The notes under the pieces were generated by a model. It did not search any database and was not told where the DNA came from. It saw nothing but the letters and a program-made list of their open reading frames with translations. A stretch of DNA of 57,816 nucleotides, counting the filler, from Circinaria calcarea (lineage: Eukaryota): the NCBI GenBank assembly GCA_051942165.1. It is 8 parts of 8 records of this genome, joined end to end, with 100 filler letters (N's around TTAATTAATTAA, not from the genome) between each part and the next. Parts side by side here need not be neighbours in the genome. Positions count along the whole stretch, not along the records: positions 36,224 to 43,358 come from JAVECS010001401.1; 7 more parts are not named here. The stretch is one strand, 5' to 3'. How positions within the stretch are numbered: position 1 is the first letter of the stretch; each line of letters begins with the position of its first letter. Both the position numbers and the translations under genes were made by a program. Positions 35,086-43,358 of the stretch are shown one piece after another.

Positions 35086-36123
35086 ATGAATGCAAAATTA
35101 ATACTGTTCACTGGGGCACCAAATACTTGCTCATTACGATGGGACGAGGACGAGCTTTCCATTTCCCTGTTACCGTGCTTCTCATCTCCATGTATTCTCC
35201 CTAGCGAAACTGTGCAACCGAGCAATCAAGCGCCGCTCTGGCGGTCAATCCCCCTCGAAAGACAGCATTTACCAACGGGACTGACCCCAAATGTCCGGCA
35301 GCTGGAATTGGTCAATGAACCGACTACCAATAGCTTTGATGACGAAGAGACTTCCTTTTTGGATACCAAGGATCCCTTCGGCGTCTTCACTGGCCCACAA
35401 GTCAACAATGAAGATCTACCCCCTTCTTCCGAAGGAGCAGAAAAGCTCCTTACCCAATTCTACGAGCACTCCTTCGCTGTCCATGAAGGACTTCCAAGCT
35501 CCCAAATCATCGACAACGATTATTCATATGATACGACTTCCTTGACCGTATCATCAGACTACTCCTCATCCTATGATCTGGGCTCAACAGCATCCCCTAC
35601 AAACACGACACCCAAGCCTACGATACCGTCCTCCGCTCATCTCAGTGATCTGGAAGACATCCCCAATGCCGCCTATGTCCGCTCAATCGAGCCCCAAACC
35701 ATGAGTGTGAACCTAATAGTTGGCATCATCTCCATGCATCCGCCGCGAATTATCAAGGCCCGCAAAGACGGCCGCACCTTGGAAGTCATTGAGTTGACAG
35801 TCGGTGACGAAACCAGGGCAGGTTTCGGCATTAACGTCTGGCTTTCATCCTCGAAATTCCAGTCAGAATGCCTACCAACTGCCATATCTGATCTCCGGCC
35901 GCAGGATATCGTCCTAGTCAGGAACGTAGGCCTCAGCGAGTTCCGCGGTAGCGTCTATGGGCAAAGTTTGAGGAAGGACAGGACGAAGCTGCATCTGCTG
36001 TACCGCAATACGATAGATAGAAACGATCGCAAGGGGGCCTATAGTAGCAAGGAGCTGGATAGTGCCGATGTGACCCAGCCGCAGATTACTAAGATAAAAA
36101 CGGTGAAGGATTGGGTGATGAGG
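35086..36123 (+). CDS. OB-fold nucleic-acid-binding protein (cut off by contig end)
   Basis: Long ORF with an acidic/Ser-rich linker, then VNLIVGII...IELTVGDETRAGFGINVW...LRPQDIVLVRNVGLSEFRG, an OB-fold beta-strand pattern. Confidence 0.7.
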
Positions 36124-36223
36124 NNNNNNNNNNNNNNNNNNNNNNNNNNNNNNNNNNNNNNNNNNNNTTAATTAATTAANNNNNNNNNNNNNNNNNNNNN
36201 NNNNNNNNNNNNNNNNNNNNNNN
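36124..36223. other. Artificial contig spacer
   Basis: N44-TTAATTAATTAA-N44. Confidence 0.99.
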
Positions 36224-36655
36224 AGCTCACTCGCCGTGAGGCTGATTCTGCCAATCGGTTATCACCGCCTCCATTGTGCGCTATATGGATTTCTGGATAA
36301 CCTTCGACGGTTGGTCCTACTGGGTGTATGCTGAATCTGCCAAAGTAGCTGCAGTACTCGAGGACTTGTGGGACTGGGAGGTCCACAAAGTCTTGGTTCC
36401 GGAAGACGACCACCTTGCGTTGGGCAACGAGCAGAGCGAGCTCATTCTTTCCCCTGTCTGATAGGGAGTCGATTTGTACACCAAGAACCTCTAAGCCCAT
36501 TGCAGGCGTAATGTGGCTTATTTTCGTCTCCTAACTTAAAAAATGAGGGAAGGTTGGACCGGCATCCTTGCCGTGCTCGTAATACTCGAAAGGTTTAGGA
36601 GTGGCAATTTTCTGGTTAGGAGTCCACGTTGGTAGGTAGTTCGTTGTCTCAGAAG
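36224..36655 (-). pseudogene. TauD/TfdA-family 2-oxoglutarate dioxygenase (Jlp1-like), interrupted by the transposon and carrying an internal stop
   Basis: NYLPTWTPNQK...FEYYEHGKDA...FLS*ETKISHITPAMGLEVLGVQI...KNELALLVAQRKVVVFRNQDF...IHP...YPEIH. In-frame TAG at 36531-36533; the frame runs into the element terminus at 36656. Confidence 0.8.
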
Positions 36656-36764
36656 CTCAGACTGCTTTTGCTTCGCTGCCGCGTATTTTTCGGAATGGCT
36701 GTATATAGTTAGTAGATGCTAAAAATAGCGTGCGCGCGAAGCGCAGTCTGAGGTATTTGTCCAC
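36656..36764. repeat. Left terminal inverted repeat / fold-back hairpin
   Basis: CTCAGACTGC (36656-36665) pairs with GCAGTCTGAG (36743-36752). Inner GCTTCGC/GCGAAGC and TATTTTT/AAAAATA also pair. Followed by TTTGTCCAC at 36756-36764. Confidence 0.85.
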
Positions 36765-36846
36765 CTTTTTTGGTGGGGGTTACAACATTGTTATATGAGA
36801 AATCGTTTTTTGAAAATTAATCAACAACCAATTAATAGAATTAAAC

Positions 36847-39512
36847 ATGGCTTATAATACCCGTTCTAAACGTTCTTTCGAACAATCTATAAGAGCGGAT
36901 TCTTCAAATACGCCCGCGTCGAGGCCTCAGAAGCGCTGCCGTTCTGGTTCAGCTCCTTTATCTCCGACTTTCACCCCTTATCAACCTGCCTCCACCCCTT
37001 CCCAGCGACCTCAATATAGACCCTACATGTCCTCCAGGCAAAAGGCAGACGATATACTGAAGTATATGCATAACCAGCATAGATGGACGGTGAGGGATTT
37101 GATCAGAAGCCTTGCGTGCGACTCCCCCGAAGAATCGAAAAGTTATGTTGGGTATAGCAAGGAAGACAGAACGGAAAGAGTTATTGAAGCAATATGGGGC
37201 CATACAGAAGTTCTGAATGAGTTTGAAAAGCACACTACTTTTCCTGGGCTGAGCACGTACAGCAGAGAATTGGAGGCGTTGGAAAATACCATTTTATTTA
37301 ATAAATGGAGAAATACAAGTGATATCGATCAATTGGATTTCTCTTATGCATTTAAAGATCTTGAACGCCTTGCTCCTATGCTTCTGCAGTTACTGAAAGC
37401 TCTTGTTGCTCCTGCCCGTGAGCGGAGAGACCGGCCAACTCGCCAGCTTGAATCTATAGAAGGTCGATTTGTTCTTATATTTTCAATTCTTTGCTTTACC
37501 CGTCGTCGAAATACCTGCGATAACATCCCAAAGTTACTTGGTTTATACCTTCAGTCAATGGGTGTTAAAAGACGGGTCCTGCAGGTTTTGGCTGGCTTAG
37601 GTATCTGCGAGAGCTATCATACCATCAATCATTTGAACGATAATATCGCCGCTGAAGCTACCACTCGTTTGGCTGATGCAGGCACTCGTTCCGATACAGT
37701 CATTGTATACGACAACTTCGATTACGAGGAGCGTGTTCAACATCAACGAACCGGTGACCATGGGGGTATGAGAAGCGTCACGAGTGGGTTGCTTCTGCAT
37801 GGAACCCTACCTCCGGAAGGGCTACGGCAAGATATGCTACGTGAGGAGGTCCCGTTGAAGCTGAAGGATATCATCAATGCGCCGGGCAATCAGTATGATG
37901 ATATTCAGAAGAAGGTAAGCTGAAAATGTGGATCTTCTGTATGGATCTCATACAGAACTTCTGTATGGCATATGCTAATAAGAATTAGTAGATTTCAGTT
38001 TATTTCATCGCTCAAGCGCTTCAAAAGCAGCACCCAAAGGCTATCAAGCGGTTGTTCGTAGATGCCGAATACCCTGCAATGCCTTGCCTCGATGTGCTGG
38101 ACGCCCGCCAAACCCATCAGTTCTCCCTCGGTCCTATACTGAGTAACGAGGGGACTATTCAGGGGACCTATGAGGTGCTTGCAACGATCTTCAAAGACCA
38201 GCTGCATTGCAGGACTGAGGACTTTGAGAACAGGCTGTGGCTAGTGTATGGAGATCAGAAAACGGCATCTAATATCCGGAGTGTGATCAATCAACGAAGG
38301 GAGGCATCATATGGGTTTGAGCGTCACAATTGGGTATTGCCTCTTTCGGCATTCTTCCACCTTCGCCAAACATACCTATGGATGATGCAGGCGGCTCATT
38401 TTGGCGGTGAGAATCAGAACTCGCCATCGACGTTATATCATAACATGAACTTCTGGAATCGGCATCATATTCCTGCAGTCAAGGGGCCATTCCATCACGT
38501 TGAGGAGCTCGTTATGCATAGCTTTGAGGCCCGCATTGTGGCATTTTTCTACACTGTCATACAGAAGGCTAATGTCGGTATCGACTCTGCGGAAATTATT
38601 GAAGAATACCTTAACACGGTGACTACCGAACGGTATTTGGAGATAGTGGAAGATGTGTATTGTATAGCGTTTAGTAAAGAAGTGCAGCAACCGGCTATCC
38701 AAAAGAATCATGAACAAGAAGATGAAGAATTTTCAAATCATATTCGATACCTTCAGCACGCCGAGACCTATGCTATTCTGAAATACGCTACGAAGCATGG
38801 CGATATTGGCCTTATCGGGCGAGCAATCGATCGTTGTTGTGTATACTTTCATGGATCTAATCAAACCAAATACGCCCATGAAATGCTTCTATACAAACGA
38901 CTTCTTGCTACTGATGCGGCTACTCCGGAGCTGAAACGAGCTATTCTAGCCAATGGTCTTGTCAATACACGAGGCAAAAAGGATAGCTTCGTGGCGATCG
39001 ATTTGATCAACGAACAGCTAAATCTTACGTTGAAACAAATTCTTTGGGCACGTCGAACATCCACCTATGGTATAGATAAGCTATTCAGTCGTACCGCCTT
39101 AACGTCTAGCTACTGCGGCTCCTTGAAAGAATGCCTGGAGGCGGAATTCGGTGAACATACCAATGCAGAACATACAACCAAGGCATCGAGCATTGACGTA
39201 CGGAATCTTGCCTACGAAATGGCTAAAGGTTCAATCAAACGCCAGCTCAGTGGTAGAACCGTCACGTTCAAAGCCCCGCATCTCGTGGTGCTTGGAAGCC
39301 ATCGGCTTGTAACCAAATCGTTGGCAGAGTTCAATCAAAGAGTTGTATATATGGCCGATCAATTGGCGCCTACTCTGAGTGATGATATTGAGGACGATGG
39401 GGCAGGGGAGTTACCAGATGGTAGCTTTCCTTTAGATCTACAGGTAAGTTAATCCATATATTCTACGTTATATGCTATATCCTAACAAACGAGTTAGCCA
39501 GAGGAAGAATAA
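36847..39512 (+). CDS. Academ-type (DUF6589-like) DDE transposase, about 844 aa, 3 exons
   Basis: Exons 36847-37914, 37992-39443 and 39498-39512 (GTAAG donors, CTAA branch sites, TAG acceptors, frames consistent). Candidate catalytic motifs IVYDNFD, LVYGDQKT, AFFHLR and DLINEQLN. Confidence 0.8.
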
Positions 39513-39563
39513 TGCGGGTTATTACAGAACTTCTGTATGCGAACCTCTTTTATATACATGTTA

Positions 39564-41657
39564 TTATTGCATCTGATTGCTATTGCCTATACCTCTGCTA
39601 TTACCATTCTCACCCAACGGCAGTCGCTTTCTACCAGCTCCTTTGCCTTTCGTATTGGCTTTGCCGCCGTTCTTTGCCTCCTCTTTCTTCCTATCATCAA
39701 CGGCCTCGCTGAAAGCTTTTTTGGACGCCTGGAAAAGCTTCTCGTAGCACTGCTCACGCCACTCCCATTGCCCTACTCCTGTGAGCTCTTTGACATCGTC
39801 GATTTTGCTTGTTATAGCACTGCTGGCGACCTGATCTAGAATATCATCTGGCACCAATGCCTCAGGTATGCAATTGCCAAATATGGTGTTTTGGAATTCC
39901 ATCGCTGCAATTTCCTCGCGCCATTCTCTCAACTTCTTTTGTATGGGCTCTGTAAGTTCGCTCGTTTTATATACACGTTTTTTCTTGCTCGGCTTAGCTA
40001 GAAGCTCCGATGGGCAAGAAAGCAAATGCATAGACTGGCAGCGATTACAGCAGATAACTGGGGTACCTCGCTCTGGGCCTTCATTCAGATAATCCAGAAT
40101 AATCTTTCGAATACAGCCCGTACTGTTGAACAGATCATACAGAACTTCTGATAAGGCTTTCCGCTTTTCAGCTTCTGTTTTGGTTATTTTCTTGGCTTTG
40201 GCTTTGGCTTCTGTACCCTGTGAAGCAGCAGTATCACCGTCAGGGGTACCAGCACGAGAGATTGACTGGTCAGTAGCCTCGCTATCTGATAGAACCAATT
40301 GCTGTGATAGCTGACTAGGTCGTATAGATTGACTAGACTGACTAGAAAGCTTTGATCTCCTGGGCTTTTTGGGCTGAATCTCTTGTGAACCCCATAGCCA
40401 TTGTTCCGCCAGTAGTATGGCTTCACCAGTCCTATCAGAACTTCTGGCAGCACGTCCAAATCGTTGCCATAAAATTTCGATAGCTTCCTCTCGCTCTCCA
40501 GGCAACCGCCATACGACAACCCTATCGATATCGGATAGATCAACACCCATCCCTAAGCTATCGGTGGCAAATGCGATTCGATAAGCCGATTGCTCGCCAG
40601 GCTTTTTAAACTCTTGCATAAACGCTATCTTATCGACATCGGCTATAGTGGAATGGTAGGCTGCAGTGGCTGCTCTGATCGTCGTATTGGTATAACCCCG
40701 CCTGCTTAGCCATTGCCTGACTGCAGCTAACGCATTAGACATTATAACTTTGGACTCGAAATATATAATAGTCTTTGGAATACTGCATAATGGCCGAAGG
40801 CCCGCAGGGGTTACTTCAATAACAGCGTCTATAACGAAATATAGATCTGTGAAAGTCTTGGTCTCACCCGGCGTGATAGGCTTAATCAAAATGGAAATTT
40901 CAGGACGATCAACAGAAGTTCTGATAAGCTTAACGTCTTTTTGGAAGCCCACGCTCTCTTTCACTACCCGCAAAGTCTCTGCAGGCAGGGTCGCTGATGT
41001 CCCAAACCAAGGCACCCCGGCACCAAGGAATCGACGCAAAGAGGCCAGCTGTCCGTACGGCTTCCGGAAATCACGGCCCCATTGTTTCACACAATGAAGT
41101 TCATCTACAACGACCAGGCCTACCCGAGACTTGAAGCCAGGGTCTTTGGCAATGCTACTGAATTGGACGTTGACGGCAAGCTCCGGGCTTAACAGAATGT
41201 GAGTAAATTCGCATTTTCGAATCTGTTCGAGGATCTTCTGACTGATATGGTCTTTATCTAGCAAACATGGCTTGCAGTTAGGCAGCTGCTGCATCTTAGC
41301 ATGCTGTTCTTGACCCAATGCCGTCAACGGAATGATCATAATGGTGATACTGTTCCTGCGAAGGGCGGATACGGCCTGTGGAATCATGCTTTTGCCGAAG
41401 GACGTTTTGGCTATCAGAATAAGATCCTTTCGGTTATATATCAACGTTCTGATAGCCTCAATCTGTTCCGGCTTGCCCTTATAGGGGTATATCCTCTCAA
41501 TGCCTTCTGCGACACGTTCTGTCTGTTTTTCGACCCCATTGTTCTTTGCTGCATCCAGTGTATTCAAGAACGCTTGCCATTCATTAATAGGCGGTTCAAC
41601 CCTTTCCTCTCCTGCGCGTTGACTCCACCGTTTGCGCCACTTCCTATCGAAAGCCAT
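39564..41657 (-). CDS. RecQ-type superfamily 2 DNA helicase (transposon-encoded)
   Basis: Motif I AKTSFGKS, II VVDELHCV followed by the RecQ aromatic loop WGRDFRKPY, III SAT, V ATDSLGMGVD, VI QRFGRAAR, zinc module CIR...CCNRC and HRDC-like LREWREE. First in-frame ATG is at 41657; the frame stays open to 41879, so the true start is uncertain. Confidence 0.9.
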   Translation of the reverse strand: MAFDRKWRKRWSQRAGEERVEPPINEWQAFLNTLDAAKNNGVEKQTERVAEGIERIYPYKGKPEQIEAIRTLIYNRKDLILIAKTSFGKSMIPQAVSALRRNSITIMIIPLTALGQEQHAKMQQLPNCKPCLLDKDHISQKILEQIRKCEFTHILLSPELAVNVQFSSIAKDPGFKSRVGLVVVDELHCVKQWGRDFRKPYGQLASLRRFLGAGVPWFGTSATLPAETLRVVKESVGFQKDVKLIRTSVDRPEISILIKPITPGETKTFTDLYFVIDAVIEVTPAGLRPLCSIPKTIIYFESKVIMSNALAAVRQWLSRRGYTNTTIRAATAAYHSTIADVDKIAFMQEFKKPGEQSAYRIAFATDSLGMGVDLSDIDRVVVWRLPGEREEAIEILWQRFGRAARSSDRTGEAILLAEQWLWGSQEIQPKKPRRSKLSSQSSQSIRPSQLSQQLVLSDSEATDQSISRAGTPDGDTAASQGTEAKAKAKKITKTEAEKRKALSEVLYDLFNSTGCIRKIILDYLNEGPERGTPVICCNRCQSMHLLSCPSELLAKPSKKKRVYKTSELTEPIQKKLREWREEIAAMEFQNTIFGNCIPEALVPDDILDQVASSAITSKIDDVKELTGVGQWEWREQCYEKLFQASKKAFSEAVDDRKKEEAKNGGKANTKGKGAGRKRLPLGENGNSRGIGNSNQMQ

Positions 41658-41679
41658 AGAGAAAAGAGGGTCGGCGATT

Positions 41680-41746
41680 TTCTGTATGGGGGATCTTCTG
41701 TATGGAAGTGCAGAAGTTCTGTATGGGAAACCGAAGTTCTGTATGG
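41680..41746 (+). repeat. Four tandem TTCTGTATGG motifs just upstream of the helicase ATG
   Basis: Copies at 41680, 41696, 41717 and 41737 (spacing 16, 21, 20 bp). Confidence 0.9.
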
Positions 41747-42067
41747 AGAACAAAGGGTCTGGTAATTGTTCTGAGGGGTTCAATAGCGATTTACCGCAAG
41801 TATAGTCGTGCAATGGGTAGTTGGAGGGGTTTACACTAAACCGTGATCTTTGGTTATTAGCGTTTTGTTCAACAACCACTGGGTGGAATTAATTACTTAA
41901 AGGGTTATATTACAGAGCAGAGTATTTAGAAGAGAATATAAGAGCGGATTTAATTAATTATGCGTGGTGGTTACGTGGTTGATAAAAATCATAATTTGGG
42001 AGCGCGGGGATGTCGCGTGGTTTTGTATGTAAATTGCTAACAAATGTCGCGAGGTCCCATATATTCC

Positions 42068-42162
42068 GTGGACAAAACTCTCAGACTTCTTTCAAAAAAG
42101 GTTTACATAATATCGGATCGGAATAACCATTTTACGCGGAGCTAGTACGAAAGAAGTCTGAG
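42068..42162. repeat. Right terminal inverted repeat / fold-back hairpin
   Basis: GTGGACAAA at 42068-42076. CTCAGACTTCTTTC (42080-42093) is perfectly complementary to GAAAGAAGTCTGAG (42149-42162). Confidence 0.85.
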
Positions 42163-42346
42163 GCCCCCGGAGCTTGCGGAGGTGGCACTGAGGCAATCGT
42201 CGTCATTCGTAGACAGCATGACTAAGCTCTTTCTTCTCGCAACTGCCCCTCCTCAACCCCACATCCTATTACTTCCTACATCTCTTTTACACGTGTGAAT
42301 AACTCCTTCTCGGTATATAATTGCTTCATTGTACATCGCCTCAGCT

Positions 42347-42780
42347 ATGCCTGCGTCGTCCGAATTCGAAAATGCTGCGGCTGCGGTTAAAAAGTTTTCG
42401 AAGGATCCTCCCAACGAAGTCAAACTTGAGGTGATTACTTGTTTGCCTGAATTAGAGCTGTAATGCACGAAGGATACACTGACAGAGTGACTCCTAGATC
42501 TATGGTTTATATAAGCAAGGATCACAGAACCCGCCCTTCGATAAGGCACCGGCACCGTCAACTTTCGATTTCACGGTCCGCTCCCTCTACTCTGTTCATT
42601 CCATCTCCTTCATCAAACTCGTCCGACCATGCATTTGTTAAAAGGGTTCTACTAACCTCTTCTCAGGGAAAAGCCAAATATAACGCCTGGAAGAAGGTAA
42701 ACGACGCTAAGGTTACACCCGCCGAAGCACAGAAAAAATACGTCGAACTGTACAAGAAAATCAAGAGCGACTACGAATGA
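42347..42780 (+). CDS. Acyl-CoA-binding protein (ACBP), 3 exons
   Basis: Spliced MPASSEFENAAAAVKKFSKDPPNEVKLE / IYGLYKQGSQNPPFDKAPAPSTFDFT / GKAKYNAWKKV...AEAQKKYVELY, with ACBP signatures YGLYKQ and KAKxxAW. Confidence 0.9.
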
Positions 42781-43358
42781 ATCCGGCACAATTACGGAAC
42801 AGAACGAGCTCATTGCTACTGGTGTTAAGATGCCTCGTGTAGCGTAAAGCTGGCGGGGAAGTAGAAGAAGAGATCATACATATGGACATGGGCAAGGCAG
42901 AGACGTGGCTTTCGTCTCAAGTCAATCATCGTCAGTATAGGCACATCTGCAATTGCACGTTGATTCAAGTACAACTTCTCGATTAGGCGCGTGAGTCATC
43001 TCCATCTGCCAGGAATCACCCACGTTTTCATCCACAAGGGTACAGTTTAAGACCTCCTTTGACTCTAATGCCTGCTGTCCTGCTTTCCATTTTATGTAGC
43101 CTAATAGTGATTTGTATTTGCAACCCTCATATCAACGTATATCTTCACGTACGAATCAAGCCTCACATTGCTCGTAAAAGTATTTGGAACTGTCATAGCG
43201 TTTTCTCCAATGGATATGCTAAAGCTAGGCTAGCAAAACAGTAGCTACGATGGTGGTTTCTCAGTGCATCCCAAACCCAGGCCAAACCCTTCCCATCCAA
43301 TCCGGCTCCGAGTCCGGCGCAGTAGCACACCAAGGCATCTCATCATCCCTATACGGAA

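Follow-up and report, generated by a model that had tools for sequence, protein, structure and literature searches.

In the IS200/IS605 family, to which IS608 belongs, imperfect subterminal palindromes lie between a few and roughly 20 nt away from the cleavage sites and are read as folded single-stranded DNA. The palindromes are present at both ends and the left and right hairpins differ, while elements of the IS608 type use a Y1 HUH transposase, leave the target site unduplicated and encode no helicase. Helitrons are eukaryotic and encode a helicase, and they carry a subterminal hairpin about 10–12 nt from an end; this hairpin is found at the 3′ end only, the protein is RepHel (HUH plus a Pif1-type SF1 helicase), and there are neither inverted termini nor target duplications. 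Parvoviruses such as AAV have a T- or Y-shaped hairpin with a long outer stem, two small inner hairpins and a conserved protein site in the stem, and an element-encoded helicase acts on the AAV hairpin, but that hairpin serves as a replication primer at the very tip of a single-stranded linear genome, and Rep combines HUH with SF3. Among DDE transposons, the IR/DR ends of Sleeping Beauty, the internal repeats of P and the subterminal hexamers of Ac/Ds likewise provide more than one recognition motif per end, although these sites are read as duplex and no complementarity is required within an end. Foldback elements consist for the most part of very long inverted termini made of tandem subrepeats. 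To our knowledge, the presence of a helicase in certain eukaryotic DDE transposons (AcademH, KolobokH) has no established explanation.

AcademH, reportedly described by Kojima in 2020 as a lineage of the Academ superfamily, combines a DDE-type transposase and an SF2 helicase in one element, as does the element analyzed here. In two articles, AcademH is described as making 9- or 10-bp target duplications (PMC10045372) and as consisting of low-copy elements in Ascomycota (PMC10799480). The accessible literature, Kojima's 2020 work not among it, mentions neither subterminal stem-loops nor TTACCTCAG termini for AcademH, and in it DUF6589 is not linked to Academ or to transposons. We analyzed a window of 57,816 nucleotides (filler included) from Circinaria calcarea, for which a preliminary description had proposed an AcademH element encoding a RecQ helicase, each terminus of which forms its own fold-back hairpin. 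The AcademH label fits: a DDE-fold transposase, a helicase and 9-bp target duplications all occur in the family, the window copy itself being without a duplication, and the assignment is set by gene content and 9-bp duplications rather than by reference Academ transposase sequences. The parts of the window copy are listed in Table 1.

Table 1. Parts of the AcademH-like element in the window, ordered by position.
Feature	Position	Strand	Remarks
Whole element, AcademH-like DNA transposon	36644..42196	+	5553 bp; run X1 match limits and terminal 9-mers
Left terminal 9-mer TTGTCTCAG	36644..36652	+	Family consensus TTACCTCAG; abuts 9-bp target duplications in relatives
Left spacer AAG, 9-mer to hairpin	36653..36655	+	3 nt; 3–4 nt in relatives
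Left subterminal stem-loop	36656..36752	.	97 nt; 10-bp basal stem, 4-nt bulge, further stems
Inner subterminal motif TTTGTCCAC, left end	36756..36764	+	Common to both ends
Transposase exon 1	36847..37914	+	356 codons; no Pfam match on its own
Intron (GTAAGC ... GCTAAT ... TAG)	37915..37991	+	77 nt; inferred from frame continuity
Transposase exon 2, DUF6589, DDE/RNase H-like fold	37992..39452	+	Pfam PF20231 at 1.1e-73
RecQ-like SF2 helicase	39564..41657	-	697 aa; Pfam and solved-structure relatives
Inner subterminal motif TTTGTCCAC, right end	42068..42076	-	Composite pattern match
Right subterminal stem-loop	42080..42162	.	83 nt; 14–15-bp basal stem; DNA folding
Right spacer	42163..42187	-	25 nt, odd against 3–4 nt in relatives; holds TCCGCAAGC read inward
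Right terminal 9-mer CTGAGGCAA, TTGCCTCAG read inward	42188..42196	-	9-mer search and run X1 match limits

The borders of the element were set with the sole sequencing run that covers part of the stretch, a metagenome (run X1; share 0.08). Other copies in this run match the window up to exactly 36644 and 42196, and the X1 contigs carry unmatched letters before the one and behind the other position; because the match is lost exactly at these points, we take the element to be 36644–42196. Both hairpins are subterminal, not terminal: contrary to the idea that each terminus is its own hairpin, they begin 12–13 nt in from the true end, or 34 nt in the case of the right end of the window copy. The unusual right spacer is part of the mobile unit, since other X1 copies also reach 42196. 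Its TCCGCAAGC is a motif also present in the hairpin loops of relatives, and the spacer read inward resembles a degenerate copy of a 9-mer followed by caag and the start of a stem. Three ORFs lie between the hairpins (36847–37923 +, 38079–39452 + and 39564–41657 -), the first two of which join over the intron to give an 842-aa protein.

The fold of the transposase was modeled on a full-length homologue (P0062, 780 aa; mean pLDDT 63, built from 19 aligned sequences). VIA-align matched this model to ISCth4 (Z 10.7, 258 aligned, rmsd 4.7), the P element (Z 9.7) and Hermes (Z 8.3), with Tn5, RAG1, Transib and retroviral integrases at lower ranks, and the top six rows from Foldseek were all Hermes (E 0.024–0.09). 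With the model of exon 2 alone, Foldseek found nothing and VIA-align gave weak matches to the P element (Z 6.2) and Hermes (Z 5.1). The invariant alignment columns include D275, D395 and E632/E638, with the D of YDNFD and the D of GDQ. Together, the fold matches and the invariant D, D and E columns indicate that the DUF6589 protein is, at the level of its predicted fold, a DDE transposase with an RNase H fold and a helical insertion, which would link DUF6589, until now a Pfam domain without a described function, to DDE transposition. The predicted fold resembles that of P and hAT transposases (Z 8.3–9.7), but a search for Pfam domains of hAT or P at a limit of E 0.01 yielded none, and the duplications are mostly 9 bp as opposed to the 8 bp of hAT and P. 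The helicase matches the Pfam families DEAD (4.6e-15) and Helicase_C (1.4e-9), with RecQ_Zn_bind at 0.0079, below its cut-off; its best solved relatives are RecQ, RECQL5, WRN, RECQ1 and BLM, from 1.7e-17, so that the RecQ identity previously proposed holds in the sense of RecQ-like by closest solved relatives. In the window, L032 and L037, the transposase has a helicase with DEAD and Helicase_C domains as its neighbor; the two genes are convergent in all three, each running inward from an element end.

These features set the element apart from the systems that its ends bring to mind. An IS200/IS605-type element was rejected on the ORFs, which give only DUF6589 and helicase domains, on the DDE fold and on the 9-bp duplications, and a Helitron on the hairpins at both ends, the inverted 9-mer termini, the 9-bp duplications and a RecQ-like helicase that is not fused to Rep. 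In contrast to the parvoviral arrangement, the hairpin here lies internal to the 9-mer tip of a chromosomal DDE element. Foldback elements were also rejected, as the palindromes here span 49–106 nt, lie within one end and surround a non-repetitive loop.

Both hairpins of the window copy are imperfect palindromes. On the left, CTCAGACTGC (36656–36665) pairs with GCAGTCTGAG (36743–36752), and on the right, CTCAGACTTCTTTC (42080–42093) pairs with GAAAGAAGTCTGAG (42149–42162); inward of each come 3 nt and then TTTGTCCAC. The stem coordinates, the sizes of 97 and 83 nt and the inner motif at both ends are exactly as the preliminary description had them, and stem position 9 does hold G:C in the left hairpin and T:A in the right one. 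The DNA fold of the left hairpin has −23.2 kcal/mol (z −4.83), a value that none of 200 shuffles equaled, and shows the further inner stems that had been ascribed to it, beyond the 10-bp base and 4-nt bulge. The right hairpin reaches −12.6 kcal/mol on the + strand (z −3.58; 1 of 200 shuffles as good) and −14.3 kcal/mol on the - strand (z −5.00; 0 of 200). The composite AGTCTGAG-NNN-TTTGTCCAC occurs at exactly two sites in the window, 36745–36764 (+) and 42068–42087 (-), against 0.13 expected by chance (2 of 100 shuffles reached two), and four of the five window sites of CTCAGACT are hairpin arms.

Relatives were sought through the transposase, which matched 490 metagenome contig stretches; 165 of these encode a relative, and the best 80 of the 165, with transposases 32–65% identical to that of the window, were used. 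The outer arm in these relatives is always preceded by the conserved 9-mer TTACCTCAG and 3–4 nt, and the right end mirrors this. The order family-wide is a 9-mer of the TTACCTCAG type, 3–4 nt, an imperfect palindrome of ~50–105 nt and a short motif common to both ends, which gives annotators a signature for the family: TTACCTCAG, 3–4 nt, a CTCAGRC hairpin and a 9-bp duplication. When the definition of a candidate terminus was limited to the 9-mer, the spacer and the opening seven letters of the stem, leaving the inner arm out, the 80 metagenome loci and the window yielded 70. A complementary inner arm is present in 63 of the 70 (score above the 99th percentile of 400 random positions), so the inner arms are not peculiar to the window copy; the 63 termini represent 52 distinct hairpins of 49–106 nt from 38 loci and the window. 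The seven termini without a scoring inner arm include truncated, nested or bulged cases, and L071, also without one, nevertheless folds at −25.3 kcal/mol. Of 25 loci that had no exact CTCAGAC pair in the first pass, 10 had a module with a variant core and 15 had none, several of the latter having too little upstream sequence; later passes added a module for L028, L044 and L054.

Perfect 9-bp duplications directly flank the 9-mers in L063 (GCCCCCTGA), L066 (TAACCCAGC), L073 (GCTGTCCGC) and L074 (CCTTGGCAC), and the duplication is 8 bp in L024 and matches at 7 of 8 positions in L080. None was found in the other 6 of the 12 evaluable elements, namely L025, L032, L036, L037, L038 and the window copy. 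The copies that lack a duplication are those of the intact 6-kb elements, which stand on short-read contigs; contigs of this kind may be chimeric across a repeat. The window copy shares no 9- or 10-mer at either the earlier or the corrected borders, its flanks differ (GGTAGTTCG at 36635–36643, TCGTCGTCA at 42197–42205), and run X1 contains no empty-site contig joining 36643 to 42197. The two flanks may not have been neighbors before insertion, whether through rearrangement, recombination between copies or assembly. One X1 contig that is 92% like the left flank continues into unlike sequence at 36644.

Across the family, hairpin length ranges from 49 to 106 nt on a fixed stem base, which suits a stem-loop rather than a fixed duplex spacing. 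The mean z is −6.3 over 34 distinct hairpins; folding is weakest in L035 (z −1.0), and the left ends of L035–L038 have a 9-bp stem only. Branching is common among the hairpins: the outer stem reaches up to 24 bp and carries one or two inner hairpins. Certain loop motifs recur across clades and at both ends (CCGCAAG, GCTAAC, GCGGATAT/ATATCCGC), and GCGCTA[AG]ACCATTCTGGT is conserved in the loops of one clade. The motif that follows the hairpin is clade-specific and common to both ends (TTTGTCCAC in the window, TTATCCATA in L003).

The stems themselves combine an invariant base with variable pairs above it. Positions 1–7 are near-invariant (CTCAGAC/GTCTGAG, or CTCAGGC/GCCTGAG in one clade), and core pair 6 switches on both sides together (A:T at 37 ends and G:C at 13 among the 52 distinct hairpins). 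At positions 8–14, all four Watson–Crick pairs are used and 73–94% of ends are paired, compared with matches of 25–39% between an outer arm and the inner arm of a different end. Over positions 8–16, the 52 distinct ends give 361 of 468 matches with their own partners against 160.1 ± 12.9 when re-paired (maximum 201 in 2000 trials); because the ends are related by descent, such shuffle counts overstate independence, and these pairing figures are not probabilities. MAFFT placed the inner arm out of register beyond 10 pairs, so positions 11–16 were counted by a script anchored at both hairpin ends without gaps, which under-counts bulged stems such as the left stem of the window. In an alignment of 29 ends and 10 basal pairs (A2), pairing holds in 96.2% of cells, where shuffles give 83.0 ± 1.3, and the covariation score of 0.318 compares with 0.070; for neither measure did any of 500 shuffles reach the observed value. 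Slid registers pair at only 15.8–40.1%. Just 3 of the 10 basal pairs in A2 vary. Of the five measures taken on A2, two do not rise above the shuffles: a double change is seen in 3 pairs (shuffles 2.9; as high in 453 of 500), and the number of further pair types is 10 (shuffles 9.2; as high in 195 of 500). The variable pairs include pair 8 (C:G 9, T:A 8, G:C 7) and pair 10 (T:A 15, C:G 5, G:C 4, A:T 3). The claim that each arm matches its own partner better than the opposite end extends from the window to the 52 distinct ends and to seven two-ended elements, in which own-partner matches at positions 8–20 number 61 of 91 and 67 of 91 against 25 of 91 and 20 of 91 for cross-end partners. The comparison of sequences thus bears out the earlier suggestion that intra-end pairing is acted on, by selection or by a pairing-dependent process.

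We lean toward a model in which the hairpins are subterminal stem-loop modules of an AcademH-type cut-and-paste transposon and work as folded DNA. A different account, which we consider unlikely, would have the arms serve as duplex transposase sites, two per end in head-to-head orientation, without any folding, as in the multiple sites of Mu, P, Ac and Sleeping Beauty. The first seven stem letters are near-invariant in both arms at all ends, and CTCAG appears a third time per end, inside the terminal 9-mer; conserved sequence of this kind has the look of a protein site. Past position 7, however, the arms differ between families and between ends and yet remain complementary within an end. Such end-specific complementarity is not predicted if one protein reads four sites: where the ends of an element differ and each is self-complementary, four equivalent duplex sites for one transposase are not expected. 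The distance between the arms also varies about twofold (49–106 nt), which sits poorly with duplex sites.

Pairing could also be maintained by mutation alone, with template switching or short-tract conversion during replication perfecting close inverted repeats as a by-product. Quasi-palindrome correction is an established mutational process, and within the clade of L059-type left ends, position 16 shows an intermediate C.A (L065, L073 and L078) beside both paired states, C:G (L059 and L074) and T:A (L066 and L080). This change is a CpA transition that is open to parallel fungal repeat-induced mutation in both arms, and it therefore carries little weight. A mutational origin leaves unexplained why a palindrome lies at a fixed 12–13 nt from the tip at both ends in every lineage, as well as the invariant basal 7 bp and the conserved loop motifs, and it would itself require hairpin formation. 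We judge it improbable as the source of the pairing.

No more probable is that the palindromes serve expression, as promoter or 5′-UTR elements of the two genes that act through RNA hairpins or as sites for dimeric factors. The transposase ATG follows the left hairpin at a distance of 95 nt and the right hairpin lies upstream of the helicase gene, in a convergent order that is conserved; the latter distance, however, is 423 nt to the helicase ATG, and a degenerate copy with no 150-aa ORF retains both the hairpins and the duplications. The region 36000–42800 gave no Rfam family match and no tRNA. An RNA hairpin would also leave an excess of G.U-type wobbles on the sense strand, and the stem mismatches on the inward-reading strand (14 G.T against 23 A.C) show no clear strand bias, so a sense-strand RNA hairpin is not favored, nor is the folding DNA strand singled out. 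Finally, that the hairpins arose by chance, or are small palindromic repeats of other origin (mini-MITEs) lodged in the ends, is scarcely credible: the far deeper X1 coverage of the ends (50–100) than of the interior (0–18), the contig joining 36742 to 42089 and the solo end units in L036, L074 and L024 might suggest it, but 63 of the 68 hairpins with such a base anywhere in the data directly adjoin a terminal 9-mer instead of being scattered independently, the window holds just the two, and even lineages with only 32% transposase identity keep them at the same place with respect to the tip.

No one of these alternatives covers the covariation, the difference between left and right, the variable spacing of the arms, their constant placement near the tip and the conservation within the loops together. 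Distant relatives retain the pairing although its letters change, and the folded shape itself is therefore probably required for movement of the element. The steps of the folded-DNA model might be as follows. The RecQ-like helicase would open about 100 bp at each end, and each opened strand would fold into a hairpin, often a branched one. Once the hairpin is extruded, the terminal 9-mer and the inner motif would become neighbors. The DDE transposase could then recognize the invariant stem base, the 9-mer that repeats CTCAG and some of the loop motifs, and it would cut at the 9-mer and integrate with a 9-bp stagger. The single-stranded or cruciform end intermediates and the replicative or helicase-assisted transposition envisaged in the preliminary description are likewise hypothetical. 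From the kinetics of cruciforms, spontaneous extrusion from duplex is unlikely with loops as long as these (about 30–70 nt), which points to a role for an unwinding enzyme, and the conserved, covarying stem-loop 12–13 nt from each tip is a concrete candidate substrate for the helicase. The stronger proposal, that AcademH ends must be refolded by their own RecQ-like helicase into branched hairpins before the transposase assembles, we put forward as speculative and somewhat doubtful. If it were true, transposition of these elements would be a helicase-licensed, structure-specific form of cut and paste, and it would join DDE chemistry to a recognition of folded ends so far known from HUH systems (IS608, Helitrons and parvoviruses).

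Several further observations concern derivatives of the element. Over 36300–42500 of the window, the X1 depth is concentrated at the ends as described above, and besides the join of 36742 to 42089, X1 contigs join 37008 to 40691, 37816 to 40923 and 39527 to 41754, a pattern that points to derivatives with internal deletions or with ends only in a related organism; given the deep ends and the join close to both hairpins, short end-only derivatives probably exist. End units consisting of a 9-mer and hairpin are arranged in tandem, or stand singly just outside a complete end, in L036 (2475–2584), L074 (19634, 19713), L017 (5369, 5429), L066 (15292, 15315) and L024 (6624–6678). The 9-bp duplication of L074 flanks the outermost end unit, suggesting that ends become duplicated or that elements insert beside each other's ends. 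The copies of 11–12 kb with perfect duplications are degenerate (L073, 8523–19776; also L063, L066, L074 and L080), and L073 retains its hairpins and duplication with no ORF of 150 aa and has a GC content of 0.36–0.42 against 0.46–0.50 in intact copies. This resembles the outcome of repeat-induced point mutation, yet the hairpins of the degenerate copies are well paired. Many metagenome contigs begin at a terminal 9-mer or only a few bases from it (L010 at position 3, L014 at 9, L027 at 2, and many loci with a match start at about 1460–1560); the contig starts are probably assembly breaks at the repeat border, and free excised copies would also fit.

Two further sequence features deserve mention. 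Read outward, a terminus such as window 42188–42196 gives CTGAG|GTAA, which agrees well with a 5′ splice site, and read inward, TTACCTCAG resembles a 3′ splice site, while the GCTAAC of many loops equals the fungal branch-point consensus; this likeness may be coincidental. In addition, an 11-nt palindrome, CAGAA[C/G]TTCTG, has seven sites in the window, all within the element (37205, 37953, 39525, 40140, 40436, 40913 and 41711), distributed over exons, the intron, the gap between the genes and the region upstream of the helicase. The relatives almost lack it (3 in 513 kb), and the 8 matches to a longer form, CATACAGAASTTCTG, compare with an expectation of 0.02.
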